Made by a program: the position numbers and the translations under genes. Positions 17,540 through 62,361 of a DNA stretch of 64,000 bases are shown here, one piece after another. The DNA is taken from the NCBI GenBank assembly GCA_029980465.1, contig JARYIJ010000001.1:1821749-1885748 (forward strand), given 5' to 3'. This DNA is from Pseudolabrys sp. (GTDB lineage: Bacteria; Pseudomonadota; Alphaproteobacteria; Rhizobiales; Xanthobacteraceae). Below the pieces are notes generated by a model. That model was not told where the DNA came from. It made no database searches and saw only the letters and a list, made by a program, of their open reading frames with translations. Within the stretch, counting starts at the first letter, position 1; every line of letters starts with the position of its first letter.

Positions 17540-17582
17540 TGCAGCGCACTCTCAATGCCAGATTGCTCCGCGGAGCCGCGCC

Positions 17583-24359: not shown

Positions 24360-24381
24360 GCCGCCGCGAGGCGGCTTTTTT
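24360..24381 (+). terminator. Rho-independent terminator
   Basis: GCCGCC-GCGA-GGCGGC stem-loop followed by TTTTTT. Confidence 0.75.
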
Positions 24382-24400
24382 CATTTCTGGAGAACATCGA

Positions 24401-25216: not shown

Positions 25217-25232
25217 ACATAGGAGTCCATCC

Positions 25233-25622: not shown

Positions 25623-25625
25623 GCC

Positions 25626-44428: not shown

Positions 44429-45315
44429 CACATGAGCGCTGCTGACCCCGAGCACGTAGCCTTTGCCCGCCCGACGTAGCTGCTGCTCGATATCGCCAAC
44501 ACCGTAGACGGTGTCACCAGCAACCCACTTGAACGGTACAGACGCAGCGATCGCGCGTGCGATCGTTCTCGTCGCAAGCTTTGGTTTGGTCGCAAAGCCG
44601 ACATCGGCAGGCACATAGGCAGCTTCCAGACGATCCGGATCGTCGGTCCATTCCTTCGGAAGATACAGCGCACGATCGATGAATGCATGACCGTGGCGCG
44701 AAACATAGGCCGCGAAGACCCCGATCTGACAGTTCGTGATCTTACCCGCCGAACCAGTGTATTGCCGCGCCACTCCGCACGATGCCTTGCCCTGCTTGAG
44801 AAAGCCGGTCTCGTCGATCACGAGGACCGCATCGTCATCCGCCAAATGCTCGATGACATAATCGCGTACGATATCGCGTAGGGCATCCGCATCCCAATCG
44901 CTGCGACCCAGGATCGCCTGCTGACGCCATGGGCCGGGATCGCCAGCCGCCTCCGCGCGCATCCAACCGGTCTTGCGCTGCTAATCTCCGAGCAGGCCTT
45001 CCAGGAACAGACCTGCATTCGTTGCAACTCGCTCTTGCCCGAACAACGGACGTATCCGCTTCTTGATCTCCCGAAGCGACGCCGCCCACAACGCAAGCGT
45101 CTCTTCTATCGACGCTGCCCGCGTCCACGATCTTCGAATCATGTTGCCTATGGATTCAGAACTCCGTAAGAACAGCAACTGTAATGCTAGGATGCCAAAT
45201 GGAGTTGCGAAAAATTCCGCTGTCTTTTCAATTGATCGATTGTATCCCAGTCGCACTCCCATGTGGAAGATTGGGCACTCCGAATTCGGAGAATGTTAGT
45301 TTCCAGTTCCTGTCG
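44429..45315 (-). mobile_element. IS701-family insertion sequence remnant (transposase frameshifted and 3'-truncated)
   Basis: ORFs 44981-45262 and 44372-44962 together read as one transposase (LVIDETGFLKQGKASCGVARQYTGSAGKITNCQIGVF), with a frame break near 44965. The C-terminal third is missing. Confidence 0.75.
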
Positions 45316-45681
45316 CTCCGCCACTCCTGACGCGACCAACATTCTCTGCCGGGATTTCTCGCGGTGAAATCGCCAATAACGGCGGCCCTTCGCGCGAAAC
45401 CTCCGCACTGTGGTGAGCCCGTCGGGGCCCGAAATTCTGTCTCTCGGCCCGTTTGTCTCCAAACCTCCGCACTTCGCGGATTTAGTGCGGTTCTCGTAAG
45501 CAACTGATTTTGAAACTCTTTTCGCGACACCAACCTCCGCACTTTGCAGAGATATCGCGGGGTAGCGAGAGAGTCTGGGAGCGAACGCCGATGTTGATTT
45601 TGCGAGCGTTTGTCAGTCTCGGAGGATGGACCGGAACCGAGCGCATTGAATGCTCAGTCCGCCGCGGGTTACCTGCCCGTA
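45316..45681 (-). repeat. 366-bp repeat R, left copy (inverted relative to 58907-59272)
   Basis: All three shadow ORFs crossing the two copies translate identically, so the copies are 100% identical over 366 bp. Confidence 0.9.
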
Positions 45682-45723
45682 GACGTCGCGAGCTGATGCC
45701 AGAACCCGAGGTGGAGGACAACG

Positions 45724-46797
45724 TTGACTCGTCCGTTGACGCGCCTTTGGCGGACGCTGGAGGAGCTTCCACAGAGAGCAGCCGAAAGACTGGAATGGCG
45801 CCTACGCCTGGCTGACGAGTTGCTCGTGGCGGCGCGCCTTCTCCGTAGCACCGGTCGGCTGGTGCACGCCGTCGCTTGCCCGAGTCCTGGAGGAGATGGA
45901 TGCCCACGAAAGATTGTGCATCACGGTGATGGCCGTATCGTTGCGGTCTGTGGCGATCGACCTCAGCGGTGCGAGAGGCTAGACCTGCATCCAGATGATA
46001 TCGAAGTGCTGGAGCTCGATGAGCAAATCCTTTGCCGTGAACTGCGCCGGGTGCTTGCCCTCGATGAGCCACATATCCCCACAGCTCTGACGAAACTTGC
46101 TCACGTCGGTACGATTCCCGCCCGGGCGGGGCTTGGACTCCCAGTGCTTATTGGGTTTCCAAGCATGGATGTACCGATCTCGGCTCACGATATTCCGACT
46201 CTATCGGTGGGGGAGATACCGGGTCTAGTTCTCACCCCGACCGGCAGCTTTGTCGATGTCCTGCCGGGCGGCTGGTCCTCCCTGTCTCTCGGGCAACTCC
46301 TTGGAGCGGATGACAGCCGACACATCGTGGCACAGGAAGCGGCGCCTGCACTAATCGATGAGTTGAAAGCGAAGGCGATGGCCACGTCCACGTTTCCGCA
46401 CGACGTGATTTGGCGACTTCCACCGGACGCCCGCTGGGAAGAGATGGCGTTCGAATTCACGGCGAGCGATGCTCTCAACATCCGCTTTCGCGGGGAGAGC
46501 CGGAGTTTTGACTCTCAACAACTCGACATGAAGCGGAATAGGACTGGCAAGCCAACGAGCCAGTGGAAGCTCCTCCAAGGGTTCGCCGAAAATGGCGGTG
46601 AGATTTCTTGGTCCAGCCCCGGGGCCAATCCGACAGTCAAGAAGCAGAAGCAACTGCTTTCGGACAAGCTGATCAAAGCCTTCGGGATCGCCGACGATCC
46701 GATCAATTGGGTCAAGCGTTCCAATACCTATCGAACAAAATTCAAGATAAGTGGAACACCCTTGGGCTTTCGCCATGCCCAGGACGCTCGCCGGTGA
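45724..46797 (+). CDS. Hypothetical protein orfB2 (homolog of orfB1, Cys-rich segment)
   Basis: 357 aa with a TTG start preceded by GAGGTGGAGGA. Contains CPSPGGDGCPRKIVHHGDGRIVAVCGDRPQRCE. Confidence 0.7.
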   Translation: MTRPLTRLWRTLEELPQRAAERLEWRLRLADELLVAARLLRSTGRLVHAVACPSPGGDGCPRKIVHHGDGRIVAVCGDRPQRCERLDLHPDDIEVLELDEQILCRELRRVLALDEPHIPTALTKLAHVGTIPARAGLGLPVLIGFPSMDVPISAHDIPTLSVGEIPGLVLTPTGSFVDVLPGGWSSLSLGQLLGADDSRHIVAQEAAPALIDELKAKAMATSTFPHDVIWRLPPDARWEEMAFEFTASDALNIRFRGESRSFDSQQLDMKRNRTGKPTSQWKLLQGFAENGGEISWSSPGANPTVKKQKQLLSDKLIKAFGIADDPINWVKRSNTYRTKFKISGTPLGFRHAQDARR

Positions 46798-46981
46798 AAT
46801 TCACCGGGGAAATTACGTCTCACGCAGAAAAAATCTTTAGCGCCTAATCGATTGAATTCATTGGTACGGCAGGCAGCCAGTTCCATCTGACAGCCGGCTT
46901 TTTCGTCTCTCTCAGCGAAGTTTCGCGAGTGGCGAGTGATCGGGCCCAGAGCCCGCCACTCGGACCATTGGCGAAACCCCT

Positions 46982-47146
46982 ATGGAGACCAGCAATCGAG
47001 ACGGCGGCATCGACCGCCGCGTCATGCGCAACATACGGTTCAATGCTCGCCGCCTGGCGTGCGGCCACACTGTCCCTGGAATGGAGGTCGAAGATTACGA
47101 GCAGGACCTCGTTGCTGATCGGGGCTGCTCCGGGCCGGCCAGGTGA
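46982..47146 (+). pseudogene. Sigma-like gene remnant (first ~44 codons) fused to helicase-derived sequence
   Basis: METSNRDGGIDRRVMRNIRFNARRLA...EDYEQDLVAD matches 9020-9150. Homology jumps to the helicase gene at about 47117. Confidence 0.75.
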
Positions 47147-47658
47147 TCTGCGGGCGCAACGCAACGCGCATGCAGCTCAACCTCGCCATGAAGCAGGCCG
47201 CAGGCTTCGCTGCTTCCTATCCGACCGGGGCCGGCGAGAAGCTGATCTGTCTGCGCAATCGCAACGACATCGGCCTGGTCAACGGCATGTTCGTCACCCT
47301 CGACGAGATCGAGGAGGACGGCGACGAGATCGCCTTCAAGGCCGCGATCACCACCGAGGATGGGCAGAAGGTCGGGGGCGAGACCAACGACAAGCGCGAG
47401 CGCTTCCGCATCTATCGCGGCCACTTCGACGACCATCTCTCGCCCGATCCCGATCGGGACCGGCGCGACCATCATAAGAAGCGCACCCTGATCGAGTGCG
47501 TCTGGGGCTGGGCCATCACCTGTCACAAGTCGCAGGGCTCCCAGTTCGAGAACGTCGTGGTGTTCGACGACGGGCTCGGGCGCACGCCGCAGGATCGCGC
47601 GCGCTGGCTCTACACCGCCATCACCCGCGCCGAGCGCGGGCTGGTGCTGCTCGATTGA
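47117..47658 (+). pseudogene. 3' fragment of the RecD-like helicase gene (copy 2)
   Basis: Matches 14060-14580 (QVICGRNATR...ITCHKSQGSQFENVVV). Walker motifs are lost. Confidence 0.8.
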
Positions 47659-47665
47659 GGCGCCA

Positions 47666-50608
47666 ATGCTCGACCTCAACGACGCGCAACCTGTATGGCC
47701 GTTCGAGCGGTTTGACCTCGATGCCATCGTCTCGCGTCTGCGCGATAGCGCCGAGCAATGGGTTCCGCAACTGTTCCCGAACGGCCGGCGGGTCGGCGAT
47801 GAATGGCGGCTCGCCAATATTCAGGGCGCCGCGCCGCGCAAGAACGGCTCTTGCGTGATCGCGCTTGCCGGCGAGCATGCGGGCGACTGGATCGACTTCG
47901 ATGGTGGTGATGGCGGTGGACCGCTCAGCACATTGGAGAATGCAACGGGACTCAGCGGACGCGAGCTGTTCGCCTACGCGGCCGATCTGACGAAAACGGG
48001 CGCGCAGCCGAAACGGTCCGCCGCCAAGCCGTCGACCAAGCAGGCCGATCAGGCCCGTGAGATCGAACATATCCTCTCCAAGGCAGTGCCAATCGCGGGC
48101 ACCTTGGGCGAACGATATCTCGCTTCGCGTGGCCTACCGGCGTCCTACTGCTCCGACCTTCTGTTCCATTCCGACCTGACGCATTGGGAAAGCCGGCGTG
48201 GCTTTCCGGGCCTGGCAGCCGTGGTACGGGACGTTGCCGGGAACCGCATCGCGCTCCACCGCACCTATCTCGCCGACGACGGCACCGCCAAGGCGCCGGT
48301 CGATAACCCGCGAAAAATGCTGGCCTCGATCGCAGGCGGCGCCGTGCGTCTCGCCGACCTGACCAAAGATGGCGTCATCGGGCTCGCCGAAGGTATCGAG
48401 ACGGCGCTCTCGGTGATGGTGGCATGTGCGCGCCTGCCGGTCTGGGCAACACTCTCGGCCTCGAACCTGGAACAGGTGGCTCTGCCCACCGAGATGCGGA
48501 AGGTCGTGCTCCTTGCCGACCACGATCCCTCCGGCGCTGGTGCGCGCGCGGCCGAGACTGCTGCCGCCCGTCTGCACGCCGAGGGCCGGCGGGTCTTCAT
48601 CGCCATGCCGCCAAAGGAGGGCGACGACTTCAATGACCTGCTGCTGCGCGACGGCGTCGATGCCGTGCGCAGAATCGTTGAGGCGGCGGTCGAATGGGGC
48701 GCCCACAGCAACGACGACCGCGTGATCCTCGCCATCGACAGCGGCACGCACAAGCCGATCGGCTTCGGGCAGTCGGATCGCCCCCGACCGCAGTTGCGCG
48801 CCGACAATGGCGATCTGGCGCGCGCAGTGTCGCAGGCGTGGCAGATTCTGCTCGCCGCCAACGATCCGCCCTGGATGTTCCGTGCCGCCGGATGTCCGAC
48901 CTGGGTGGTGCGCGACGACGACGGCCTGCCCATGGCGAAGCCCCTGACCGAGGATCGCCTGCGTCCGGTGCTCGCCCAGCTCGCCGATTGGCGAAAGCTC
49001 TCCCGCAACGGCGATCTTATCCCGGCGCATCCGCCCTTGGCGGTGATCAAGTCGATCCTCGCCACACCCGATCCGGCGCTTCCCGTGCTGGCAGGCATCG
49101 TCACGACGCCTGTGTTCGGCCGCGAGGGCGAGCTCATCACCGAGCCCGGCTACCATCCGGCTGCGCGCCTGCTCTACGACCCGCCCAAGGGCTTCGTCCT
49201 GCCGCCGGTGCCGGCGAAGCCTACGCAATCCGACATCGTCGTTGCACGGTCTCTGCTGCTCGACGACCTATTGGGAGATTTCCCGTTCATCGGCGAAGCC
49301 GAGCGCGCGCATGCGCTTGCGCTCCTTCTCGTCGGCTTCGTGCGCGCCATGATCGATGGGCCGACCCCGCTGCATCTGGTCGAGAAACCGACCCAAGGCA
49401 CCGGCGCGACCCTGATGGTGGACGTGATGTCGGTCGTCGCGATCGGCTGCCGCGCGAGCGTCATGGTCGAGGGCAGCGACGACGAGGAATGGCGCAAGCG
49501 CCTGACCGCCAAGCTACGCCAGATCCCGTCCGTCGTCCTGATCGACAATCTTCGCCGACCGCTCGACTCCTCGGCGCTCGCTGCCGCGCTCACCGCGCCG
49601 TTTTGGGAAGACCGCATCCTCGGTGTCTCGGAAACGACACGGCTGCCCATTCGCTGCATCTGGATCGCCACCGGCAACAATGCCGAGTTCTCCGGCGAGA
49701 TGGCGCGCCGGCTCGTGCGCATCCGTCTCGACGCCCGCGTCGACCAGCCCTGGCGCCGCAATGGCTTCCGCCATCCCGATCTCATTGGCTGGGTTCATGC
49801 CAACCGGGCGGATCTTGTGGCCGCCTGTCTATCGCTCTGCCGCGGCTGGATCGCGGCCGGAATGCCACGCGGGAGCAAACACATCGGCAGCTTCGAAGCC
49901 TGGTCCGCCCTCATGGGCGGCCTGCTCGAGGCGATCGGAGTGCGAGGCTTCCTCGGCAACATCGACGAGATGCTCGAAGCCTCCGACGGCGAGGGCGCGG
50001 TCTGGCGCGTGTTCGTCGGTCAATGGTGGGATCGCTTCGGCACGGCAGAGGTTGGCACCAGCGGACTCTATGAGCTCGCCGTCAATTGCGAGCCTCCGCT
50101 GCCGCTCGGCACCGGCGGCGACCGATCCCAGCGCACCCGGCTCGGCAAAGCGCTCGTGCGCATGCGCGACCGGGTCTTCGACATCGCCGGACTGAAAGCG
50201 CGCATCCGGGCGATCGGGGTTTCCCATCAGGCGCGCCGCTGGCAGCTCACGCTCGAAGGGGAACATGGGGAACGTGGGGAACGTTTTTCGGAGTCGTCCG
50301 ATTTCGGGAAAGGGGAACGTCAGGCTGCTTTAGAGCAACGTTCCCCTCAACATTCCCCGGCCTATCCCATTGATGGACAAGGCGTCGGGGAACGTGGGGA
50401 ACCTGGGGAACGTTTTTCCGACCTACGCGCACGCGCGCGCGTACACAATAATAAAGAAGAGCAAACACGTTCCCCACGTTCGTCACGTTCCCAAAACGGT
50501 GTTGGTTCAGACGCTTACGACGGGGAACATGGCGGGGAACGTCATAACGCACGTTCCCCACGTTCCCCGCTGAATGAATCGCCCGATTGGCTGAAGGGGG
50601 TGCCGTGA
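47666..50608 (+). CDS. Toprim primase / replication initiator, copy 2
   Basis: 980 aa, colinear with 14588-17539. Roughly 85-90% identical by eye. Confidence 0.8.
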   Translation: MLDLNDAQPVWPFERFDLDAIVSRLRDSAEQWVPQLFPNGRRVGDEWRLANIQGAAPRKNGSCVIALAGEHAGDWIDFDGGDGGGPLSTLENATGLSGRELFAYAADLTKTGAQPKRSAAKPSTKQADQAREIEHILSKAVPIAGTLGERYLASRGLPASYCSDLLFHSDLTHWESRRGFPGLAAVVRDVAGNRIALHRTYLADDGTAKAPVDNPRKMLASIAGGAVRLADLTKDGVIGLAEGIETALSVMVACARLPVWATLSASNLEQVALPTEMRKVVLLADHDPSGAGARAAETAAARLHAEGRRVFIAMPPKEGDDFNDLLLRDGVDAVRRIVEAAVEWGAHSNDDRVILAIDSGTHKPIGFGQSDRPRPQLRADNGDLARAVSQAWQILLAANDPPWMFRAAGCPTWVVRDDDGLPMAKPLTEDRLRPVLAQLADWRKLSRNGDLIPAHPPLAVIKSILATPDPALPVLAGIVTTPVFGREGELITEPGYHPAARLLYDPPKGFVLPPVPAKPTQSDIVVARSLLLDDLLGDFPFIGEAERAHALALLLVGFVRAMIDGPTPLHLVEKPTQGTGATLMVDVMSVVAIGCRASVMVEGSDDEEWRKRLTAKLRQIPSVVLIDNLRRPLDSSALAAALTAPFWEDRILGVSETTRLPIRCIWIATGNNAEFSGEMARRLVRIRLDARVDQPWRRNGFRHPDLIGWVHANRADLVAACLSLCRGWIAAGMPRGSKHIGSFEAWSALMGGLLEAIGVRGFLGNIDEMLEASDGEGAVWRVFVGQWWDRFGTAEVGTSGLYELAVNCEPPLPLGTGGDRSQRTRLGKALVRMRDRVFDIAGLKARIRAIGVSHQARRWQLTLEGEHGERGERFSESSDFGKGERQAALEQRSPQHSPAYPIDGQGVGERGEPGERFSDLRARARVHNNKEEQTRSPRSSRSQNGVGSDAYDGEHGGERHNARSPRSPLNESPDWLKGVP
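50258..50569. repeat. Iteron array, copy 2 (GGGGAAC[G/A/C]T units around an AT-rich core at ~50445-50462)
   Basis: Same unit, same block order and same orientation pattern as 17180-17499. Confidence 0.7.
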
Positions 50609-50651
50609 TGCCGCGCGCCCTTGATGCCAATTTGCTCCGCGGAGGCGCGCC

Positions 50652-50969
50652 ATGAGCCGGCAGCGCCTTCCCGAACGCAGGCCAAGCGTCACGACCACGT
50701 TCGTGCACGACTGCCGGTCCTATGCGGTGACGTTCGGCTTCGACCCGAGCACCGGCCGCATCGGCGAAGTGTTCACGCACGGCGCCAAGGTAGGCTCCGC
50801 CATGGACGGCATCCTCGACGATGCCTGTATCGCGCTGTCGCTTCTGCTGCAACATGGCGTCGAGCCCACGGCGCTTGCGACGAGTATGGGGCGGCTCGGC
50901 GACGGCAAGACGCCCGCGTCTGTCATTGGTGCACTCGCCGATCTCATCGCTCTCGAGGTGCAGCCGTGA
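50652..50969 (+). CDS. Conserved small phage-type hypothetical protein (copy 2)
   Basis: 105 aa homolog of 17583-17900. Confidence 0.6.
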   Translation: MSRQRLPERRPSVTTTFVHDCRSYAVTFGFDPSTGRIGEVFTHGAKVGSAMDGILDDACIALSLLLQHGVEPTALATSMGRLGDGKTPASVIGALADLIALEVQP

Positions 50970-51166
50970 GGTGGATGCCCAAGGGATACGGCGGCCACCG
51001 GCGTCCGCCCGAAGAGGTCAAGCGCGAGGGCTGGCACGAGCACGGCATCCTGGTGGTCAGCGCGGACGATCAGCGTCTCACCTGGCCTGAGCGTGAACTG
51101 ATCCGGCAACTCGGGGGAAGACTGTACGGGAAGCGATCATCGAACAAGGAGGCGTGCCATGGCTGA
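50966..51166 (+). CDS. Small hypothetical protein (copy 2)
   Basis: 66 aa with a GTG start overlapping the upstream stop (GTGA). Homolog of 17897-18097. Confidence 0.5.
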   Translation: MRWMPKGYGGHRRPPEEVKREGWHEHGILVVSADDQRLTWPERELIRQLGGRLYGKRSSNKEACHG

Positions 51167-51587
51167 TTGGACGCCGGCTTGTGTCGAAGCGCGGCTGCAC
51201 GAGGCGGCCGACGTGATGAAGCGTCTGCCCGAGGTCCGCGTGCAGGGCTACTACTCGCTGTGGCCGAAGATGCTCGCCGAGTTCAGCGATTTGGTTGGCC
51301 AGGAACCTCAGCGCCTCAAGCGTCCTCCTCCGTCTCCCGATGCCATCACGCGGATGGAGGAGACACTGGGCTGGTTGCGGTGGCTTGAAGCCGAGGATGC
51401 GAAGCTCGCCTGGGCGCGCGCCGAGCGCACCCCATGGAAAATGATCTGCTGGCGGTTCGGTATCGCTCGCGCCACCGCGCATCGGCGCTGGCAATATGTG
51501 CTGAGCGTGATCACGTGGCGGCTCAACGGGCGGAGGGTGCCGGGGAAGCGGTCACGGCGATTCGTGGTCGAAAGAGCCAAGGCTTGA
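51159..51587 (+). CDS. Hypothetical phage-type protein (copy 2), divergent C-terminal tail
   Basis: 142 aa homolog of 18090-18530. The last ~10 aa differ at the mer junction. Confidence 0.6.
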   Translation: MADWTPACVEARLHEAADVMKRLPEVRVQGYYSLWPKMLAEFSDLVGQEPQRLKRPPPSPDAITRMEETLGWLRWLEAEDAKLAWARAERTPWKMICWRFGIARATAHRRWQYVLSVITWRLNGRRVPGKRSRRFVVERAKA

Positions 51588-51591
51588 GATT

Positions 51592-52032
51592 CTATGCTTC
51601 AGCCGGCGGACGACGAACGTCGAGAACGTCAAGCACTGGGCATTCTGGTGCGGTAGTTCCAGTGCAACGCGCAACTGTCTTCGCCAGCAACCGCTCCAGC
51701 TTGCGAAGGTCAGCTATCTTGGCGCGAATCTCGTCGAGATGATGCGAAGCGATTTCGCGAACTTCCCGACATGAGGCTTTTGCGGGGCCGCCGAGCCGAA
51801 TCAGCGCGCGGACCTGATCGAGAGAAAATCCCAACTCCCGCGACCGGCGGATAAAGGCCAGGATACGAAGGTGAGTGGCGTCATAGACGCGACGCCCACC
51901 GGCTGTGCGCGGCGGCGCCGGGAACATCTTGATCCGCTCGTAGTAGCGGATTGTCTCGATGTTCACGCCGGTAAGTTCCGACAAATTACCGATTGTTAAC
52001 GCTTCCGCTCGCGCATCTGTGATCGAGCCCAT
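51592..52032 (-). CDS. merR: Mercury-responsive regulator MerR
   Basis: 146 aa. HTH is IGNLSELTGVNIETIRYYE. Three Cys residues are spaced as in MerR (ASC, ARC, PEC). Confidence 0.9.
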   Translation of the reverse strand: MGSITDARAEALTIGNLSELTGVNIETIRYYERIKMFPAPPRTAGGRRVYDATHLRILAFIRRSRELGFSLDQVRALIRLGGPAKASCREVREIASHHLDEIRAKIADLRKLERLLAKTVARCTGTTAPECPVLDVLDVRRPPAEA

Positions 52033-52043
52033 GGTGACCGGCC

Positions 52044-52074
52044 TTGCTCCTGTAGTGACTACAGGAAGTATACC
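52044..52074 (+). promoter_or_regulatory. mer operator/promoter: -35 TTGCTC, 19-bp spacer containing a perfect 9-bp dyad, -10 TATACC
   Basis: TCCTGTAGT-G-ACTACAGGA at 52048-52066 lies between -35 (52044-49) and -10 (52069-74). The 19-bp spacer is the MerR hallmark. Confidence 0.8.
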
Positions 52075-52100
52075 GCCCGCGATCCAGAGAGGACAACGAA

Positions 52101-52514
52101 ATGAGCGAAACGCGCAGCGCCATGGGTTCTATTGCATTGAGCGATCGCCCTGCCAACGCCTCGCCCGGCAAGGGTCAAAAGCTGGCGGCGGCGGGCGGGA
52201 TCATCGGTGCGCTCGCCGCATCGTCGTGCTGCATTTTGCCGGTCGTTCTCTTTAGCCTTGGTGTCAGTGGCGCATGGATTGGAAACTTCACGCAGCTTGC
52301 GCCCTATCAGCCGTATTTCATTGCGGCCACGCTCGCTTTCATCGGCACCGGCTATTGGTTGGTCTATCGCTCGTCAAAGGTCGCCTGTGCAGAGGGTGAG
52401 GCTTGCGCACGGCCATTGCCTAACAGATTCGTTAAGATCGCGCTCATTGCGGCGACCGTCATTGTTCTTGCCGCCTGGGCCTTCGACTATGTCGCCCCCT
52501 ACGTGCTGTCCTAA
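52101..52514 (+). CDS. merT: Mercuric ion transport protein MerT
   Basis: 137 aa. Vicinal Cys pair in the first TM (ASSCCILP) and a second Cys pair (CAEGEAC). Confidence 0.88.
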   Translation: MSETRSAMGSIALSDRPANASPGKGQKLAAAGGIIGALAASSCCILPVVLFSLGVSGAWIGNFTQLAPYQPYFIAATLAFIGTGYWLVYRSSKVACAEGEACARPLPNRFVKIALIAATVIVLAAWAFDYVAPYVLS

Positions 52515-52531
52515 CCAATGGAGCAAATCAA

Positions 52532-52816
52532 ATGATGAAGTACGTCATCCCTGTTACGCTCTCGCTCGGCATCATCGGTCCTTCGTCTGCTCGTGCAGCG
52601 GAAAAAACGGTGACGCTCGCGGTGCAGAACATGTACTGCGCCGCGTGCCCGCACACCGTTAAATCGAGCCTGCAATCCGTGCCGGGTGTCAAAGCGGTTT
52701 CGGTGTCATTCAAAAACAAGACTGCCATCGTGACCTTCGACGACGCAAAGACCAACGTGAAGGCGCTGACGACAGCGACGACGAACGCCGGCTATCCGTC
52801 CTCTCCGAAAGGCTGA
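52532..52816 (+). CDS. merP: Periplasmic mercury-binding protein MerP
   Basis: 94 aa with a signal peptide and heavy-metal-associated (HMA) motif NMYCAACP. Confidence 0.9.
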   Translation: MMKYVIPVTLSLGIIGPSSARAAEKTVTLAVQNMYCAACPHTVKSSLQSVPGVKAVSVSFKNKTAIVTFDDAKTNVKALTTATTNAGYPSSPKG

Positions 52817-52823
52817 GCCTCCG

Positions 52824-53075
52824 GTGAAAGCAGCCGGTACCACAATTGGAGCAGTGCTCGTTGGCGCCCTTGCGGTGGTTTGCTGCGCCACGCCAGCGAT
52901 TATTGCGGGCATCAGCGTGACGGCGCTCGCAGCTTGGCTCTCCTATTCGGGATACGTGCTGATCGCAGCCGTGCTGATTGCCGGTGCGGTCGGCTGCGTC
53001 CTGTGGCTCCGGCGTCGCGGCATCAATGCTCAAGCGTGCTGCGGGCCAGCAAAGAAGGCGTCAAATCATGAGTGA
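52824..53075 (+). CDS. merF: Two-TM mercury transporter MerF-like
   Basis: 83 aa with a GTG start and two vicinal Cys pairs (VVCCATP and QACCGP). Confidence 0.7.
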   Translation: MKAAGTTIGAVLVGALAVVCCATPAIIAGISVTALAAWLSYSGYVLIAAVLIAGAVGCVLWLRRRGINAQACCGPAKKASNHE

Positions 53076-53669
53076 CTGTTGCGCGTCTGGAAATCGCGGC
53101 AAGCAATTTGATCTCGCCGTCATCGGTGCGGGGTCGGCAGGCTTTTCGGCGGCGATCACTGCGGCAGAACAAGGTGCGCAGGTGGCTCTGATTGGTCATG
53201 GCACTCTTGGCGGCACATGCGTCAACATCGGTTGCGTGCCGTCAAAAACACTAATCCGGGCCGCTGAGACACAGCATCAGGCCAGCGCCGCCGCGCGCTT
53301 CGCAGGCATCAGGGCCAAAGGGCAGGTGGGCGATTGGACAGCGACCGTCCAGCAGAAAGACGAGCTCGTTTCGAGCCTGCGCCAATCGAAATACGCCGAT
53401 CTTTTACCGGCTTATAACAACATCTCTTACGTCGAAGGGCAGGCCCGCCTTGCCGAAGGTGGCGTGGCCATCAATGGCGATCTGATCAAGGCGCCGCGCC
53501 TTATCATCGTCACGGGCGCACGGCCTGCAGTGCCCTCGATCCCCGGTCTTGATGCTGTCGAGTATCTGACAAGCACCACCGCGCTATCCCTTGAATGCCT
53601 CCCGAAGTCATTGCTTGTGATCGGCGGGGGTTACATCGGCGCTGAACTAGCGCAGATGTTTGCGCGCAT
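53068..53669 (+). pseudogene. merA: Mercuric reductase MerA, 3'-truncated (about 200 of ~470 codons; no NmerA domain)
   Basis: MSDCC..., FAD motif GAGSAGF, redox-active GGTCVNIGCVPSK. Breaks after GGGYIGAELAQMFAR, where portal-derived sequence starts. Confidence 0.85.
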
Positions 53670-54146
53670 GAGCGGCAGCATCTCCGACGGCAGCATCTGA
53701 AGCTGGAGCGGGACCGTGAGCCCGTCCTGCGGCCGGCGCGGCCGGAAACGGAAGAACACTTCGCCTGCGATGAACACTTCGCGTGCCGCGCGGCGTTGCA
53801 GGCCATAGAAGTCCGTGAAACCTTCGGCGTCGGCCTCGTCGGTCCAGTCGAGCCAAAGCTTCTGGACCTGCGCTTTGACGCCGGTATCTTTGATCAGGGA
53901 TGACGGCTTGATGCCGGCACCCACAACGTTACCGGCCCAGCTCTCGATCGCGTTCGCCGCGTAGCCGTTGTTGCGAATTAGCCAGCGGGCGCGCGCCGTG
54001 ATGTCGGGACCGGCCGCCGCAATGAGCGTGTTGAGATGCGCGCGGCTCGGCTGGAAGCCCTTGAGCCTGCGGTTCGCGAGTCCTGCTTCGAAGCCGCCGA
54101 TGAAGGCTCCAACCCGCCGCCGGAACGCTGTCAGGGAGGCGAGCAC
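53670..54146 (-). pseudogene. N-terminal fragment of a lambda-type phage portal protein
   Basis: GFEAGLANRRLKGFQPSRAHLNTLI...RWLIRNNGYAANAIESW...FRFRPRR. Truncated at the merA junction. Confidence 0.75.
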
Positions 54147-54359
54147 TCAGAGGCCTTTCGAGGCAGACGTGAGAATGCGGCGCTTGCGGCCACCCTCCTG
54201 GGCCGCCGCGATCCGCCGCTCGAGGTCCGTGATTGCGGCTGCCATCTCGGCATCGCTGCCGTAGGTGACGCGGCGGCCGTCGATCTCCACGGTGCGCACG
54301 CCGCGGAAGCGCGCGGCGAGCAGCGCGTCCCGTTGCGCGGTCATCTCTTCGAGCGTCAT
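54147..54359 (-). CDS. Phage head-tail joining protein (gpW-like)
   Basis: 70 aa located between the terminase and portal fragments, as in lambda A-W-B order. Confidence 0.65.
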   Translation of the reverse strand: MTLEEMTAQRDALLAARFRGVRTVEIDGRRVTYGSDAEMAAAITDLERRIAAAQEGGRKRRILTSASKGL

Positions 54360-54363
54360 GAGT

Positions 54364-54588
54364 TCAGCCCAGATAGCTCGACCGGAACACGCGCCGCGCT
54401 CGGCGCTCAGGCCGTCGGCGGATCACGCCGGCGACGGGATCGCTTTCCGCGGCGGGATCGGTGGTTTGACTGCGCTCATCTTCGTCAGGCGGGCCGATCT
54501 GACTCTCCAGGTCACGCCACATCGCGTCGGTCCAGCGATCGGCGCCGGCGATCCACGCGGCTGCTCTCGCGTAGACCAGCGTCCGCGG
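54364..54588 (-). pseudogene. C-terminal fragment of a terminase large subunit (lambda GpA-type position)
   Basis: My own translation reads ...VYARAAAWIAGADRWTDAMWRDLESQIGPPDEDE..., ending 4 nt before the gpW start. An in-frame TAG lies at the upstream breakpoint. Assignment is by position and weak similarity. Confidence 0.45.
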
Positions 54589-54804
54589 CTACGTCCGCGA
54601 GCTGCAATCCCAGATTCAGGTGCTCTCGGAGCGCGCCGCGAACCTCGCCGCCAATCTGGCAGCGGCGAACGAGCAAAACGAGCTGCATCTCGCGCGTATC
54701 GATGCGCTCCAGGATGAGCTCGCGAAGGCCAAGGAGCCGCGCGACGTGAGCCCGGAGCCGCCGCCGGGCTGATCCGATCCTCCCGTTTCCGATCCTCAAC
54801 CTAG

Positions 54805-54825
54805 GCCGCCTCCGGGCGGCTTTTT
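54805..54825 (+). terminator. Rho-independent terminator (counterpart of 24360-24381)
   Basis: GCCGCC-TCCG-GGCGGC followed by TTTTT. Confidence 0.7.
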
Positions 54826-54841
54826 CATTTGGAGAACCGAC

Positions 54842-55657
54842 ATGGCGGCTTCGACCTACGACGAGGCGCTGCGGCGCCTGCTCGCCCACGAGGGCGGTTA
54901 TACCAACCATCCGTCCGACCCCGGCGGCCCGACGAATTTTGGCATCACGATCTACGACTACCGCAAATACGTGAAGCCGAACGCCACAGCCGCCGACGTG
55001 CGCTCCATGACGGTCGGCGAGGCCAAGGCGATCTATCGCAAGCGCTACTGGGATGCGGAGCGCTGCGATGAGCTGCCCGCCGGGGTCGATTACTCGGTGT
55101 TCGATTATGGCGTGAACAGCGGGATCGGGCGCAGCGGCAAGGTGCTGCGCCGCATCGTCGGGCTGCCCGACAGCACCCACGTGGTCACCGACGAGGTGCT
55201 GCGCGCTATCGCCAGGCGCGACCCGAAGGCGCTTGTCGTCGCGATCAATGACGAGCGCCTGGCCTTCCTCAAGCGCCTGAAGACCTGGCCGGTGTTCGGC
55301 AAAGGCTGGGGCGCGCGCGTCGCCGCCGTCAAATCCGTCAGCCTGCGCATGGTGTCACAACAGACGTCGGCACCCCCGATCGCGCCGGGCGCCGCACCTG
55401 TCCCCGGCAAGGGCGTCGTGCCGGCGCCGGCAGCCGCAAAGAAAGTGATCGTTGGGACCGGCACCGCCGCTCCGGTCGCTGCCGGCGGCGGCTTCTGGGA
55501 CTGGATCGCGGCCCACCCCTTCGAGACCGCAGCGCTTGGCTGCGGCGTCGTCCTGATCGTCGGCAGCTCGGTCTACGCGCTCAACCGCTGGCACCAGCGT
55601 CGGCAGGAAGCCGCCATCCCCGAAACGCCTTTCGTCCCCGCGCTCGCCACCGCCTGA
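54842..55657 (+). CDS. Phage lysozyme GH108 + PG_binding_3 (copy 2)
   Basis: 271 aa, colinear with 24401-25216. Confidence 0.88.
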   Translation: MAASTYDEALRRLLAHEGGYTNHPSDPGGPTNFGITIYDYRKYVKPNATAADVRSMTVGEAKAIYRKRYWDAERCDELPAGVDYSVFDYGVNSGIGRSGKVLRRIVGLPDSTHVVTDEVLRAIARRDPKALVVAINDERLAFLKRLKTWPVFGKGWGARVAAVKSVSLRMVSQQTSAPPIAPGAAPVPGKGVVPAPAAAKKVIVGTGTAAPVAAGGGFWDWIAAHPFETAALGCGVVLIVGSSVYALNRWHQRRQEAAIPETPFVPALATA

Positions 55658-55673
55658 ATATTGGAGGACACCC

Positions 55674-56063
55674 ATGCTGCTCTACATCTCGATCGCCGCA
55701 ACGCTCGTTGCGGTCTATTGGTTCTGGATTCGTCCGATCCTGAAATCGCGCCCCGCCTTCCGCGAGCTCTACCAGGAAGAGGAGAATTTCTTCGCCGCCC
55801 TGCGCGCAAAATTTGCCGGCATCAAGCAGAAGCTGTCGTCCGCGGTCGTGATCGCCGCGAGCGCCATCGTGAGCGGCTACGACTTCTTCGCGCCGATCGT
55901 CGGCGGCGTCGATGTGAGCTCGATCGCGGCGCAGGTGCCGTCTTGGGCTTGGCCGCTGATCCTGATCGTCGTGACTGCCGTCATGAAATACTTCCGCGAT
56001 CTTTCCGACAAGCGGCGTGAAATCGAACTAGGTGATGGGTCGTCCGCGCCACAGGAGAAGTGA
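55674..56063 (+). CDS. Membrane protein, holin candidate (copy 2)
   Basis: 129 aa homolog of 25233-25622. Confidence 0.5.
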   Translation: MLLYISIAATLVAVYWFWIRPILKSRPAFRELYQEEENFFAALRAKFAGIKQKLSSAVVIAASAIVSGYDFFAPIVGGVDVSSIAAQVPSWAWPLILIVVTAVMKYFRDLSDKRREIELGDGSSAPQEK

Positions 56064-56067
56064 CGCC

Positions 56068-56457
56068 ATGTGGACTTGGCTTGGGAGCCTCATCGGCGGC
56101 CCCGTCGTTACTGGCCTCATCAATGCCTACAGGGCGAAGCTCGACGCCGCGAACACGCAGGACCGGATCGCGGCCGACCTCGCCGCCAAAGAGATCGAGG
56201 CGGAGATCGAGGCGCGCAGGCAGGCCTCCGCCATCATCATCGCTGAGCAGGGCCGCTGGTACACGGCGATCATTCGGCCGCTGCTTGCGCTGCCGATCAT
56301 CATCTATTTCTGGAAAGTGATCGTCTGGGACAAGGTGCTCGGGCTCGGCAGCACCGATCCACTCACCGGCATGATCGCCGATTGGAGCGGCTTGATCATC
56401 ACTGCATACGTCGGCGGACGCTCGATCGAGAAAGTCGCGCGGATTTTCAGGCGATAG
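56068..56457 (+). CDS. 3-TM holin-like membrane protein (copy 2)
   Basis: 129 aa from MWTWLGSLIGG. Homolog of 25626-26015. Confidence 0.5.
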   Translation: MWTWLGSLIGGPVVTGLINAYRAKLDAANTQDRIAADLAAKEIEAEIEARRQASAIIIAEQGRWYTAIIRPLLALPIIIYFWKVIVWDKVLGLGSTDPLTGMIADWSGLIITAYVGGRSIEKVARIFRR

Positions 56458-56472
56458 TCCGAAGGTGCTCAG

Positions 56473-56754
56473 ATGAGTGCAAGCCAAGACGAATTCAAAA
56501 GGCCGAAGCCGCTGCTCGATCGGACAATCACCTACGGTCATATTCTGACGGCGATCAGTTTTGTGATCGCAGGGACGGCAGCATTCTTCGGAATGAAAGC
56601 GGAACTGCAGAATGTCGATCAGCGCGTCGCCAAGATCGAAGCGACGCTCCAGCAGCTTGCGAACGTCGTGGTGCAGACCGCCCGACAGGACGAGCGGCTT
56701 AATGCTATCGAGCGGCGTGTCGATCGCCTCGAACAATCGTCAACCCACCGCTGA
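56473..56754 (+). CDS. TM + coiled-coil protein (spanin-like candidate), unrelated to 26046-26396
   Basis: 93 aa with one central TM followed by a heptad-like C-terminus. Confidence 0.45.
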   Translation: MSASQDEFKRPKPLLDRTITYGHILTAISFVIAGTAAFFGMKAELQNVDQRVAKIEATLQQLANVVVQTARQDERLNAIERRVDRLEQSSTHR

Positions 56755-57225
56755 CGAGATTGGCACGAAGGGCGCCGCTGTGTCTTTCAAAAACATTGCC
56801 GCAATCTGTTCGCCCTGGCGGATGATGGCCGCATCAGCTGCGGGGACAAATTCGGCAACGGAACGTTGCCAATCGTCCATCGGGATTTTCGGCTCAAATA
56901 TCGGAGCATCCAGACGAATGACCGAAGGCGGACCAAGGAGAAGACGAACTTGATTTGTCGCGGCGAGTGATTGCAGCCGCATGGCGGCTTCGATGATCCT
57001 CTTCCAGTGCCAAAGACCGCCCTTCGTGATCTCGGCTCGCGACACGATGTACTTGTCGTCGCCGCAACCGAGGCTCGGCGCCTTGAGCAGGGCCTGGTCG
57101 ATCTCGCTCTGGCCGTCGATTCCGCCCGGGCGGACGATCATGGTCACCTTGGCGAAGGTGCCGTCGGGAATGAGTTCGCCGGTCTTCTGCGGCTCGGCAT
57201 CGTTCATGTCGAACATGGTGGTCAT
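56740..57225 (-). pseudogene. DUF669-like gene remnant (first 49 codons, 57079-57225) fused to unrelated lower-GC sequence
   Basis: MTTMFDMNDAEPQKTGELIPDGTFAKVTM...QALLKAP matches 11194-11340, then diverges. Confidence 0.7.
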
Positions 57226-58157
57226 CCTCTGCTGGTCTGGTTGATCTTGCGGAGCAGCGCGCCGAGGTCGGGCGGCTCAGTGAGGTCGAGGCGGCCGGAG
57301 CGATCCTTGCCCGGCAGGCCGAAGGGATTGGCCGACTGGCAGACGAGGCGGCGCACCTCGCCGCGATCGGGCTCGTGACGCCAGGTGTCGCCATCGGGCG
57401 CGAACCGGCTCATGGAGATCACCTGGTCGACGATGCCGGGGAGCTCGCGGGCAGCCTTGCCACCCTCCATCTGCGGCTGCCAGGTGACGCGGTTGAACTC
57501 GTCGGTGACGCGGTCCAGGATCCCGACGAAGATCACGGTGCGGCCTGGCACGTGTTGCAGGTGCTTCAGGAGCCCGATGGTTTCGCGCGCGAGCAGGCCG
57601 TAAGCGCCGCGGGTGTCAGGCTTGCCGGTCCGCTCCGACTGCGCTTCCGGTCGCGTCTTCGCCCAGGCCATGGCGAGCCGCGTGAGGTCGGTGATGGAGT
57701 CCACGAAGATGATGCGCTTGCCCGCGATCATGCGGACGAGGTCGGGATAGGTGTCGCCGAGATGCCGGTAGTGGCTTTCGCAAAAGAAGGTCTTCTCATC
57801 CGCCGCCGGATCAACGCCGCCGACGAGGCAGGCGACGTCGAGAGCATCGGCGAAGCTGCGCACGGGGATGCTGTCGCCGGGCCAGTCCTGGACCGACTTC
57901 ATGCCGGCTTCGAGATCGATGCAGAGCGTCTCCGCCGGTGGCAGGGTCTTGAGCAGCGAGGTCTTGCCGACACCCGAGGGCCCGAAGATCGCCATCGTGG
58001 TCTTCGCATGCGCCTCGGCGAGCCGCTGATCGGCGGTGATGATGCGCAGCGCCAGCCGCATGAGGCCGGTAGCTAGAATCTCGGCGATTTCGGTAAGGCG
58101 CTCGGCGGCGGAAAGATGCTGGGGCGATAGAGGGTTGGGGATCGAAGCGGTCGGCAT
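57222..58157 (-). CDS. Sak4-like ATPase (copy 2) carrying a foreign 35-codon N-terminal leader
   Basis: From ALRIITADQRLAEAH onward it matches 10364-11197. The leader MPTASIPNPLSPQHLSAAERLTEIAEILATGLMRL matches the small ORF at 6430. Confidence 0.7.
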   Translation of the reverse strand: MPTASIPNPLSPQHLSAAERLTEIAEILATGLMRLALRIITADQRLAEAHAKTTMAIFGPSGVGKTSLLKTLPPAETLCIDLEAGMKSVQDWPGDSIPVRSFADALDVACLVGGVDPAADEKTFFCESHYRHLGDTYPDLVRMIAGKRIIFVDSITDLTRLAMAWAKTRPEAQSERTGKPDTRGAYGLLARETIGLLKHLQHVPGRTVIFVGILDRVTDEFNRVTWQPQMEGGKAARELPGIVDQVISMSRFAPDGDTWRHEPDRGEVRRLVCQSANPFGLPGKDRSGRLDLTEPPDLGALLRKINQTSRG

Positions 58158-58315
58158 TTTTGGCCCCGGTTACCTGGCTGTCACCTACCGGGCGTCGGGG
58201 GAAACTGTCGGGATACTGCATCGCAAAGGTTGTGATAATTGTGCGACTCGTGATTTAGTGGTGAGGAAGTCTAAGAATCGCTTCTCTGGCGCGCACTCTA
58301 CATAGGGGTGATCGC

Positions 58316-58903
58316 ATGGCTACCTTCAGGCTCCGGAAATTCAGCCACCCTGATGCTCTTAGAGCCATTGCGCCTGCTAGGCTGACGACATTTCTCCGCC
58401 AATACATGGAATATTTCAGAGGTCGCGGCGTCGCATTGCCGGAGGACGGTATGTTCTCCGGCGATGCAGAGATGTGGGACGCGCAGCAGGCTCAACATGA
58501 GCTATTGCTGCAGCTCGCGAATAAATCTGATCTCGCAAAATATTTTGAAGAGAATGCCAACCAGCAGGTCGATCCGATTCTCCTCGATGAGAATGGCTTC
58601 GTTGTAAATGGGAATAGACGCCTCTCGTATTGGCGCGAGCTCCTGCACAAAGAATCAACCAAATACGGTCATTTCCGTCACATCGACGCCGCGGTGCTCC
58701 CACATTGCGATGAGAAAGAGATCGACCGACTCGAAGCGACGCTGCAGATCGAAAAGGACATCAAGGCCGACTACAGCTGGGATGCCAGAGCTAACATGAT
58801 GCTGGCTAAACAGAAGCGTGACGGCTTTTCCAACAAAGAACTTGGCGAGCTTTACGGCATGAAGGAGAGCGACGTCGAAGAGCTTCTCGATATGCGTGCT
58901 TAG
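58316..58903 (+). CDS. orfA2: orfA1-type N-terminus (~45 aa) joined to a ParB/Srx-like domain
   Basis: 195 aa. MATFRLRKFSHPDALRAIAPARL... then FVVNGNRRLSYW (ParB-type G-x-x-R box). The region is visibly AT-richer. The stop lies 4 nt before repeat R. Confidence 0.6.
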   Translation: MATFRLRKFSHPDALRAIAPARLTTFLRQYMEYFRGRGVALPEDGMFSGDAEMWDAQQAQHELLLQLANKSDLAKYFEENANQQVDPILLDENGFVVNGNRRLSYWRELLHKESTKYGHFRHIDAAVLPHCDEKEIDRLEATLQIEKDIKADYSWDARANMMLAKQKRDGFSNKELGELYGMKESDVEELLDMRA

Positions 58904-58906
58904 CTA

Positions 58907-59272
58907 TACGGGCAGGTAACCCGCGGCGGACTGAGCATTCAATGCGCTCGGTTCCGGTCCATCCTCCGAGACTGACAAACGCTCGCAAAATCAACATCGG
59001 CGTTCGCTCCCAGACTCTCTCGCTACCCCGCGATATCTCTGCAAAGTGCGGAGGTTGGTGTCGCGAAAAGAGTTTCAAAATCAGTTGCTTACGAGAACCG
59101 CACTAAATCCGCGAAGTGCGGAGGTTTGGAGACAAACGGGCCGAGAGACAGAATTTCGGGCCCCGACGGGCTCACCACAGTGCGGAGGTTTCGCGCGAAG
59201 GGCCGCCGTTATTGGCGATTTCACCGCGAGAAATCCCGGCAGAGAATGTTGGTCGCGTCAGGAGTGGCGGAG
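58907..59272 (+). repeat. 366-bp repeat R, right copy, with three AGTGCGGAGGTT boxes
   Basis: Boxes at 59045, 59115 and 59179, plus a degenerate AGTGGCGGAGG at 59263. Identical to the reverse complement of 45316-45681. Confidence 0.9.
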
Positions 59273-59383
59273 GGAGAAATCCTCTGTGCCAACTCGCTCT
59301 TCGTAATCGCGCGCAAGGTGGAGTGGCTACGAGAAGTACTGAGAATCGATCTGCAGACCTCCTCCTGCTGTCAAAGGTCGCCT

Positions 59384-59776
59384 TCAACGGTCGGTAGAAT
59401 CATCGATGATGCTCTGGACTACTTCCACGATCCCTTTGAGCTTCTCGTGTGCATCGATGAGTCGACGCGCTCCCGCGTAATGTTGGCGCCCAGCGCGCTG
59501 CAGGAATAGCTCGAAAATCGCGTCCGAAGAACCCGCGAGTGCGATCAGATGGTGGCCGCTCGGTCCCCTCGAACCAGCAAACCAGTACTTCACCGTCCGC
59601 TCGCTGGCCCCGGTCCAGCGCATCGCTGATTTGACCGCTTGGTGCGTCGTACCGAGTTCTCTTCGCAGGGCAGCGGCTATCGCAATTGCATAGTCTACAT
59701 CGGAATCGTGCCCACGGTTGGGCTGGTGCACAACTGTGCCCTTTTTCGGCACAAGTGTGCCCTTTTTCGCAGGCAT
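59384..59776 (-). CDS. Small hypothetical protein, possible HTH regulator
   Basis: 130 aa, divergent from the recombinase gene. Contains AMRWTGASERTVKYWFAG. N-terminal tandem KKGT(L/V)V is encoded by a direct DNA repeat. Confidence 0.5.
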   Translation of the reverse strand: MPAKKGTLVPKKGTVVHQPNRGHDSDVDYAIAIAAALRRELGTTHQAVKSAMRWTGASERTVKYWFAGSRGPSGHHLIALAGSSDAIFELFLQRAGRQHYAGARRLIDAHEKLKGIVEVVQSIIDDSTDR

Positions 59777-59849
59777 GTTTTCGACCCTCCCCCGTTAAAC
59801 TGGTGAAGGGCCATCAACGGCAGAACTGCTCTCGCGCGTCCTGCGGCTG

Positions 59850-62359: not shown

Positions 62360-62361
62360 GC

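Follow-up and report, generated by a model that had tools for sequence, protein, structure and literature searches.

A perfect 366-bp inverted repeat in a Pseudolabrys genome: a probable duplicated attachment-site arm around a phage remnant

The inverted repeat and its immediate surroundings

The locus described here lies in a 64,000-nt stretch of DNA (hereafter, the window) from a 3.43-Mb contig of a Pseudolabrys sp. metagenome-assembled genome (MAG). Its central feature is a perfect inverted repeat, whose arms we call R (left) and R' (right), that brackets a 13.2-kb segment of phage-derived DNA beside the gene of a large serine recombinase. Read directly from the sequence, the left arm (45316-45681, + strand) is the exact reverse complement of the right arm (58907-59272, - strand) over 366 bp; the two exact arms stand 13,225 nt apart (45682-58906). 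A first-pass annotation of the window had reported this identity, and it was borne out by a repeat finder, which placed the inverted arms at 45313-45681 and 58907-59275 (369 nt each), and by blastn, which matched the arms at 368/369 positions, the sole mismatch being g at 45315 against c at 59273. The pair is by far the longest perfect repeat of the window. The remaining intra-window repeats, which are pieces of two related phage-like elements, are 78-93% identical by blastn, in keeping with the 85-90% that the annotation had judged by eye for the duplicated phage genes; set against these values, the 100% identity of the arms supports its view that the repeat pair is much younger than the other duplications of the window.

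The structure is also present in a separate set of sequences. Specifically, all four junctions between R and its flanks occur in Logan unitigs of run SRR22113990, a separate short-read assembly that may or may not be the source data of the window's genome. The four unitigs concerned each break off 30 bp (k-1) inside R: L004 has its first base at window 45345, L002 corresponds to 45652-46942, L001 to 58025-58936, and L003 has its last base at 59243. The reads therefore describe a single repeat node that is joined to two different neighbours on its outer side and to two on its inner side. The inner junctions 45681/45682 and 58906/58907, which the first-pass annotation had singled out for checking in reads, are thus supported, together with both outer ones. 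Both isomers of the locus yield the same four junctions, so the unitigs are blind to the orientation of the 13.2-kb segment and to the coexistence of both orientations. An assembly or strain-mixture artefact, in which two R contexts from two coexisting strains were joined through R, might be entertained, given that the source is labelled a MAG and that short-read unitigs cannot phase the four junctions. We consider it very unlikely, however, since every junction exists in the reads and since a 3.43-Mb contig suggests long-read assembly, whose reads would easily span 366 bp. Further, two outer and two inner neighbours around a contiguous 13.2 kb force an inverted-repeat structure, provided that the segment sits in one genome.

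The two arms have different outer flanks. Left of R lies the remnant of an IS701-family (DDE_5) insertion sequence (IS) transposase (44372-44962, - strand; Pfam DDE_5, E=1.4e-41, profile 48-214 of 272). The first-pass annotation had this remnant cutting off the left copy at 45315, a claim that did not survive: the DDE_5 match stops at 44962, the open reading frames (ORFs) between 44818 and 45262 have no Pfam match and carry no transposase signal, and the remnant, which is separated from R by 320 bp or more, does not form the repeat boundary. Right of R' begins a resident serine-recombinase element. Its end, designated type a (59273-59383, - strand), is followed by a gene for a 130-aa protein (59384-59776, - strand), the large serine recombinase gene int540 (59850-61472, + strand; Resolvase and Recombinase domains by Pfam; called 524 aa in the unitigs), and two ParB_N/RepB genes, also assigned by Pfam (61211-62359 and 62362-63261, both + strand). 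Together, these genes form a conserved end module (59384-63261) that recurs in L003 and in six further loci (L030, L031, L033, L034, L039, and L040). The int540 gene lies 578 bp from the right arm, and the module of its relatives terminates at the first bases of R' as seen from the element, that is, at the 8-bp common core described below: three of them (L030, L031, and L032; nucleotide identity 91-95.5%) stay collinear with the window between 63339 and 59265, where that core has just been crossed, and continue from there in unrelated DNA. The far end of the int540 element was not found within the window, which ends inside the element or its flank.

Attachment-site architecture and R-like sequences elsewhere

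From its outer end inward, R comprises the common core, a right half-site, three copies of the 12-mer AACCTCCGCACT, and a 59-bp tail. When 185,579 species genomes were searched for pairs of this 12-mer spaced by 40-70 nt, 14 loci came back, against about 0.1 expected by our own estimate. Nine of these (L006, L007, L010-L015, and L018), all from Alphaproteobacteria and several from Pseudorhodoplanes, align to R at 67-87% over approximately 250-330 bp, and five metagenome loci (L025-L029) align at 80-92%. Summarised over the nine genome and five metagenome loci, which are all counted as alphaproteobacterial, the alignments come to 77-92% over approximately 150-330 bp. We also considered whether the 12-mer is a general iteron and rejected the idea, since five of the scan's loci (L005, L008, L009, L016, and L017) are tandem duplications of gene starts. 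These loci, from beta- and delta-proteobacteria and spirochaetes, are arrays of two to four or more (2-4+) near-identical 60-69-bp units that are unrelated to R; each unit includes, on the opposite strand, a start codon and a ribosome-binding site, and the arrays share the 12-mer only because its complement contains a Shine-Dalgarno sequence.

The R-like loci tie the outer end of R to tRNA-Ser genes. The first 8 nt of R, CTCCGCCA (45316-45323, + strand, in the left arm and 59265-59272 in the right), equal the 3' end of tRNA-Ser in a MAFFT alignment with loci whose tRNA-Ser gene finishes in these bases and in the table of dyad symmetry, and the outer ends of both R copies coincide because this attachment (att) core sits there. 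ARAGORN placed an intact tRNA-Ser(GGA) or tRNA-Ser(CGA) gene ending exactly at the start of the R-like sequence in six loci (L010, L012, L013, L015, L026, and L027), while L014 and L025 are cut by contig ends. L027 shows accretion directly: its tRNA-Ser gene leads into a diverged R-like copy and a 2.7-kb ars cassette, after which come a displaced and diverged tRNA 3' half and a second R-like copy. This arrangement, like the intact abutting genes, fits a tRNA-targeting genomic island. The ars islet itself (L027 1670-4742) encodes an MIP-family channel, ArsC, a glyoxalase-like protein, and ArsR, and no recombinase of its own. No tRNA gene was found in the 64-kb window.

Around the core, two inverted half-sites can be recognized. 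The left one, an 11-bp sequence of the form GAG(A/C)(G/A)(T/A)GTT(G/A)G, starts 27 nt before the core (28 in L039) in two kinds of element end. In the window, the type-a end carries it as GAGCGAGTTGG, 16 nt before the core of the right arm, and a second kind of end, designated type b (45283-45315, + strand), carries it as GAGAATGTTAG at 45289-45299, 16 nt before the core of the left arm; L011 has GAGAGTGTTGG. In most R-like copies, the complementary half-site, CCAACATTCTC, begins 12 nt past the core (45336-45346 in the left arm, 59242-59252 in the right); in L006 and L029 it is degraded. The symmetry is centred on TC at core positions 2-3, and the half-sites span 58 bp from outer edge to outer edge, slightly longer than typical serine-integrase sites (approximately 40-50 bp). 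Inward of the half-sites, the 12-mers lie at 45398, 45462, and 45532 in the left arm and at 59045, 59115, and 59179 in the right.

Attachment sites of serine integrases consist of paired half-sites around a central dinucleotide and occur as attP, attB, and the hybrids attL and attR (PMC3783163), and the loci collected here sort into comparable classes. Both half-sites (P-core-P', attP-type) are found in both window arms, L011, and L029, and more weakly in L006 and L018. A tRNA-Ser gene with a right half-site and no left one (tRNA-core-P', attL-type) is found in L010, L012, L013, L015, L025, and L026. A left half-site leading into unrelated DNA, with no right half-site (P-core-other, attR-type), is found in L030 (twice), L031, and L039. 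Where the R-like sequence is preceded by a type-b end of 35-45 bp, as in the left window arm, L006, L011, L018, and L029, that end stands in place of the tRNA; in L030 it stands alone with a core, 60 bp beyond the first element end and without R-like sequence. On this comparative pattern, we read R as the element-side P' arm of an att site plus the 8-bp common core, and each arm of the inverted repeat as what appears to be a complete attP-type site. The element family most likely inserts at the 3' end of tRNA-Ser genes by means of a large serine recombinase. The suggestion in the first-pass annotation that the repeat is the terminal segment of a mobile element present twice was, in that sense, essentially right, R being the putative core-proximal (P') arm of this family of integrative elements.

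Other identities for R fared poorly. The shadow ORFs that cross it were rejected as genes because all frames are about equally conserved (55-80% at the amino acid level, against 77-87% at the nucleotide level), so R is non-coding. A structured RNA gene was likewise rejected: no Rfam match was found inside R at E<=1, and RNAalifold on 10 R homologues, with only the given strand folded, gave no covariation support (term +2.14 kcal/mol), the best-conserved stretches being invariant. Blastn of R against phage and plasmid collections returned no match. R-like sequence is thus a DNA module of its own, discrete, conserved, and non-coding. Its surroundings are diverse. The flanks of the nine genome and five metagenome loci share neither DNA nor proteins, except that L010 and L012 have the same upstream genes. 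On the inner side lie genes for an amidohydrolase, a phosphatase, restriction-modification (RM) enzymes, a sigma factor, GpsA, a VapE-like protein, and a porin, and on the outer side a CopA-type ATPase, LigD, membrane proteins, and IS110 fragments. The first-pass annotation had named a common dispersed repeat with no fixed neighbours as a finding that would refute its reading; across genomes this is what is seen, R-like sequence lying in unrelated gene contexts with the tRNA-Ser end or att core as its one fixed neighbour.

The int540 element and its relatives share only the 3.8-kb end module and one 178-bp non-coding block past the ParB genes (window 63306-63483 against L033 6303-6478). The block is 90% identical, as compared with 74% for the adjacent genes, and carries the hairpin CGCGCCCGGCTG-N9-CAGCCGGGCGCG. 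Unitigs L003 and L031, which come from different samples, both break at approximately 63335-63339, suggesting a dispersed repeat or another cis site of the element. In L033 (754-5779), a relative of the ParB-ParB-serine recombinase-130-aa module adjoins an operon of the CBASS (cyclic oligonucleotide-based antiphage signalling system) type, encoding a patatin, a DncV-like nucleotidyltransferase, a ThiF/E1-like protein, and a JAB protein, which suggests that elements of this type carry defence cargo.

The bracketed segment and the origin of the inverted pair

The 13.2-kb segment is made largely of a phage-like element, here phage B, with a more complete relative in the same window (element A) and intact relatives elsewhere (L035, and also L036-L038). 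Next to the left arm, phage-B part 1 (45682-47120, + strand) holds the last 134 bp of the homologue of a 417-aa gene, the gene B_357 (45724-46797; 38% amino acid identity to A_368 of element A), and the start of the homologue of a 329/330-aa gene. By blastn, window 45680-47120 matches L035 1758-3197 on the plus strand at 88.8%. After a deletion joint at 47120/47126 comes part 2 (47126-51557, + strand), which encodes a C-terminal helicase fragment, a 980-aa primase (47666-50608), and TSCPD and DUF6362 proteins (Pfam, PHROGs), and is 83.5% identical to element A 14054-18488. Further along, a lysis module (54805-56754, + strand; Pfam, PHROGs) comprises a GH108 endolysin gene (54842-55657), a 129-aa ORF without a family match, a holin-like 141-aa gene, and a 93-aa ORF, of which 54805-56444 is 86% identical to element A 24360-26002. 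An AAA_24/Sak4-like gene with the start of the next gene (57075-58054, - strand) lies inverted relative to its counterpart in element A (10365-11344; 91% identity) and has a fusion joint at 58053/58054. Beyond it lie the upstream region and first 135 bp of the 417-aa-gene homologue (58053-58450, + strand), the same gene whose 3' end lies at 45682; this stretch matches L035 379-774 on the plus strand at 80.9% by blastn, and its coding part has 53% amino acid identity to the N-terminus of A_398.

In the intact relative L035, the order is 417-aa gene, B_357-like gene, and 329-aa gene, matching A_398, A_368, and A_330 of element A. Since both L035 matches are on the same strand at opposite ends of the segment, one 417-aa gene has been split, with its 3' part at the left arm, its 5' part near the right arm, and the middle 983 bp missing. 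The 13.2 kb is a one-genome-length phage remnant, circularly permuted, internally deleted, and partly inverted, that was opened inside the 417-aa gene; it is no functional cassette. The segment also holds other pieces. A truncated mer operon of foreign origin (51592-53700; MerR on the - strand, and MerT, MerP, and a MerA fragment on the +; Pfam) abuts an inverted fragment of a lambda-family portal gene (53631-54146, - strand; Phage_portal_2, profile 2-144 of 354), and, next to the right arm, there is an internal fragment of a ParB-like defence-island gene (58451-58902, + strand; residues 86-235, truncated at both ends). The gene represented by this 450-bp fragment occurs elsewhere in RM/SNF2 defence islands (L019-L024).

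Several smaller observations concern the same DNA. In the mer operon, MerP is an HMA domain protein and MerA keeps only its N-terminal third, the operon ending against the inverted portal fragment. A former adjacency of ORF C_195 and B_357, like that of A_398 and A_368, was rejected in its simple form, since C_195 is chimeric and its larger part is the truncated ParB-like gene, and the split of the 417-aa gene took its place as the explanation; the fusion ORF (58316-58903) joins a 45-aa phage gene start to the ParB-like fragment. The AAA_24/Sak4-like gene, too, is now a fusion ORF (57222-58157): its frame crosses the joint at 58053/58054 and is thereby extended by 34 aa at the N-terminus. In both phage copies, the primase gene carries iteron-like GGGGAAC(A/G)T repeats at its 3' end (50258-50292, 50387-50421, and, inverted, 50463-50492; element A 17180-17343), which may mark the phage replication origin. 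In the stretch 1332-26400, element A has its own large serine recombinase gene (4453-5895, - strand) and adjoins the remnant of a type I RM system (HsdM, 1332-2864; an HsdS-like gene, 3266-3910). Between element A and the repeat, at approximately 28-43 kb, lies an aromatic ring-hydroxylating dioxygenase cluster.

A perfect inverted repeat of 366 bp is a plausible RecA substrate, and the 13.2-kb segment can probably be flipped by RecA through the pair. A flip would leave every gene as it is, given that R is non-coding and that the inner joints are dead ends in any case, and we saw no sign of a programmed switch. Since both arms are of the attP type, a flip driven by int540 is conceivable as well. 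Such a programmed segment, in which int540 would recombine two inverted att sites at the outer repeat ends as Cin does at cix sites, has a recombinase gene adjoining the segment and cores at the outer ends of the inverted repeats in its favour, and intramolecular attP x attP recombination has been seen for the LI/A118 integrase and for CcrAB (PMC3783163). Nevertheless, we hold this to be extremely unlikely. What would be switched is debris, made up of split and fragmentary genes and a dead mer operon, and no reading frame or promoter-gene link was found to change on flipping; gene fragments lie at both segment ends and R has no conserved ORF, unlike the situation expected of Hin/Gin/Cin-type systems. 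Further, most serine integrases recombine two attP sites inefficiently (PMC3783163), and four relatives (L030, L031, L033, and L039) lack such a second site.

At the left inner joint, R...CCCGTA|GACGTC, homology to the phage (L035 ...GGCTTAGACGCC) begins at a shared TA, a 2-bp microhomology. At the right joint, homology to the ParB-like gene stops at ...GCGTGCTTA (homologues continue YADEYL...), followed by the filler GCTA (58903-58906) and then by R'. Both joints are illegitimate, and both fall at the same nucleotide of R (45681/58907), a coincidence that calls for a defined DNA end or site at that position or for some single event. We unsuccessfully sought a native continuation past the inner end, an exact 25-mer of the R tail having no match in metagenomes. 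The tail (45623-45681) was seen in this genome only and is not conserved among the R-like loci.

One way to account for the shared nucleotide is that R, or a type-b end, core, and R together (approximately 410 bp), is a small non-autonomous unit resembling a miniature inverted-repeat transposable element (MITE) or a cis-mobilizable element (CIME), with ...CCCGTA as its natural terminus. The unit would have been inserted twice in opposite orientations, and the int540 element would later have entered the right core and displaced the type-b end. Stand-alone units with a type-b end, core, and R-like sequence do lie amid unrelated host-like genes in L006, L011, L018, and L029, and some contigs or genomes have several R-like copies (L025 and L027; L006 and L010 from one MAG). 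TA flanks both inner joints, and the two copies are 100% identical. However, the 4-nt filler on one side only is unexpected for a transposition joint, and the outer edges show no terminal inverted repeats and no target duplication, there being no direct repeat outside 45316/59272 (flanks ...CCTGTCG and GGGAGAAAT...). The displaced type-b end was not found in 59273-64000. Conservation among the other R-like copies stops 43-84 bp short of the inner end of R, at a place that varies by pair, and the R tip has no further copy in the window or in the fetched loci; as an IS or transposon terminus it was rejected, since its other matches are at chance level. On this evidence we regard the small mobile unit as unlikely, although worth keeping in mind.

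On balance, we favour the view that a duplicated att arm of a tRNA-Ser-targeting element brackets the debris of a dead phage, and that the locus is a rearrangement scar in an integration hotspot and not a new system. One att arm would recently have been duplicated into inverted position during an illegitimate rearrangement of the hotspot, and a linearised circular phage genome would have been captured between two R-terminated ends. A recent event is argued by the 100% identity of the arms, as opposed to the 76-83% of the paired R-like copies within L025 and within L027. No single event that we reconstructed gives different outer flanks together with identical inner ends. The candidate paths are a small mobile unit inserted twice and followed by int540 integration, an inverted dimer, cleavage of two identical arms at the same site, and gene conversion. 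Integration of the int540 element as an inverted dimer would explain both the outer flanks and the shared inner end, but unitig L003 is unbranched through the core, which weakens tandem- and inverted-dimer models, and no second junction of an end and core with other DNA was seen; we disfavour this path and keep it as a low-probability variant.

Gene conversion has its own version, in which two related elements brought slightly different P' arms, and conversion or repeated RecA flipping homogenised them over their full shared length, so that the edges of identity are edges of homology. In line with this, the outer edge of identity is the start of two different element ends (types a and b), weak similarity runs 5 nt outside the core (T-TC-), and R-like arms normally lead into different cargo at every locus. 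Yet a conversion tract seldom extends to the very last base at either end of a homology block, let alone at both, the paired copies in L025 and L027 have remained divergent, and both inner flanks are illegitimate joints to gene fragments and not native cargo. We thus give homogenisation a small chance.

Several observations weigh against the duplicated att arm as well. First, generic rearrangement does not explain two illegitimate joints at the same nucleotide of R. Second, no complete two-ended element was seen, and the right arm of the window is the one place where an R-like arm is linked to the ParB-ParB-recombinase module; at the other R-like copies, no recombinase lies on either side within the 8-kb loci. 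Third, the 12-mer pair has 0 matches in 2.9 million viral contigs, and an R that serves as a phage attP arm visible among viral contigs was accordingly rejected. Fourth, some R-like copies lead into ordinary-looking host genes (amidohydrolase, GpsA) and could be target-side sequence. Fifth, the unbranched passage of L003 through the core argues against a second int540 end elsewhere. Finally, the central dinucleotide and the activity of the recombinase are read from symmetry only.

The first of these points can be turned into a more ambitious proposal, for which we see a slim prospect. The R-like arms might be a cis module, consisting of an att half-site and three 12-mer sites for the ParB/RepB-like or 130-aa proteins, of undescribed compact tRNA-Ser serine-recombinase elements, with 45681/58907 as the fixed position at which the excised circle would be cleaved or nicked (an origin or processing site). 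If so, a defined end at 45681/58907 would explain two joints on one nucleotide, and such elements would capture foreign DNA at a fixed site, here a whole linearised phage genome. The coincidence of the two joints is the only lead to something new at this locus, and it would be of consequence only if the element itself produces a defined DNA end there.

Significance and comparison with known systems

Read as a duplicated att arm, the inverted repeat is what mobile-element traffic ordinarily leaves behind, and its value is partly a lesson for annotation, in that a mysterious perfect inverted repeat turns out to be, on our reading, a duplicated arm of an att site. It also supplies a search signature for Xanthobacteraceae and other Alphaproteobacteria, namely the core CTCCGCCA at the end of tRNA-Ser, the half-sites GAGAGTGTTGG and CCAACATTCTC, and an arm of approximately 300 bp with AACCTCCGCACT repeats. 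The cargo or neighbours of such elements include defence systems, metal resistance genes, and catabolic genes. The predicted structural polymorphism, two orientations of 13.2 kb, could confuse assemblies and has no obvious phenotype.

Among known systems, the closest parallels are the sites and elements of serine integrases, such as phiC31, Bxb1, A118, and SPbeta (PMC3783163, PMC3642061, PMC5499854). Like these, the R site has a short common core (here 8 bp), two inverted half-sites around a centre, and the P-core-P', B-core-P', and P-core-B' classes, and the window encodes a protein with Resolvase and Recombinase domains beside one element end. The differences are as follows. The target here is the 3' end of tRNA-Ser, which is more typical of tyrosine integrases (PMC4383910). 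The P' side has a conserved non-coding arm of approximately 300 bp with three 12-mers, which canonical sites do not need. Finally, the module includes two ParB_N/RepB genes. All three features would be unusual in a serine-integrase system.

A second parallel is the accretion of islands and att scars at tRNA genes, as in CIME-type remnants and tandem arrays of the staphylococcal cassette chromosome (SCC) type. In L027, two direct R-like copies likewise surround an ars cassette by tRNA-Ser; in L030, two element ends lie 60 bp apart; and in the window, element ends abut the arm of another element, with decaying gene content between the att scars. Accretion at a single site leaves direct repeats, however, whereas the window arms are inverted and 100% identical and so require an extra step of inversion or duplication beyond accretion.

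As for the inverted arrangement itself, chromosomal segments that were inverted when prophage, IS, or other repeats in opposite orientation recombined homologously are documented in Escherichia coli O157:H7 (PMC8743559) and Staphylococcus aureus (PMC6778178). There, as here, a perfect inverted repeat surrounds a segment within prophage-derived DNA, but in those cases the repeats run to kilobases and inversion was demonstrated, whereas our arms measure 366 bp around 13 kb and no alternative orientation was observed. A more distant resemblance is to the invertible C segment of phage P1 and G segment of phage Mu. In P1, the cix sites lie at the outer ends of 0.6-kb repeats and are recombined by Cin; Cin and Gin are small invertases that need an enhancer and Fis and that switch tail-fibre genes. 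The window shares with these systems the sites at the outer repeat ends and the adjacent serine recombinase gene, and it differs from them in having a recombinase of the integrase type and no switchable genes.

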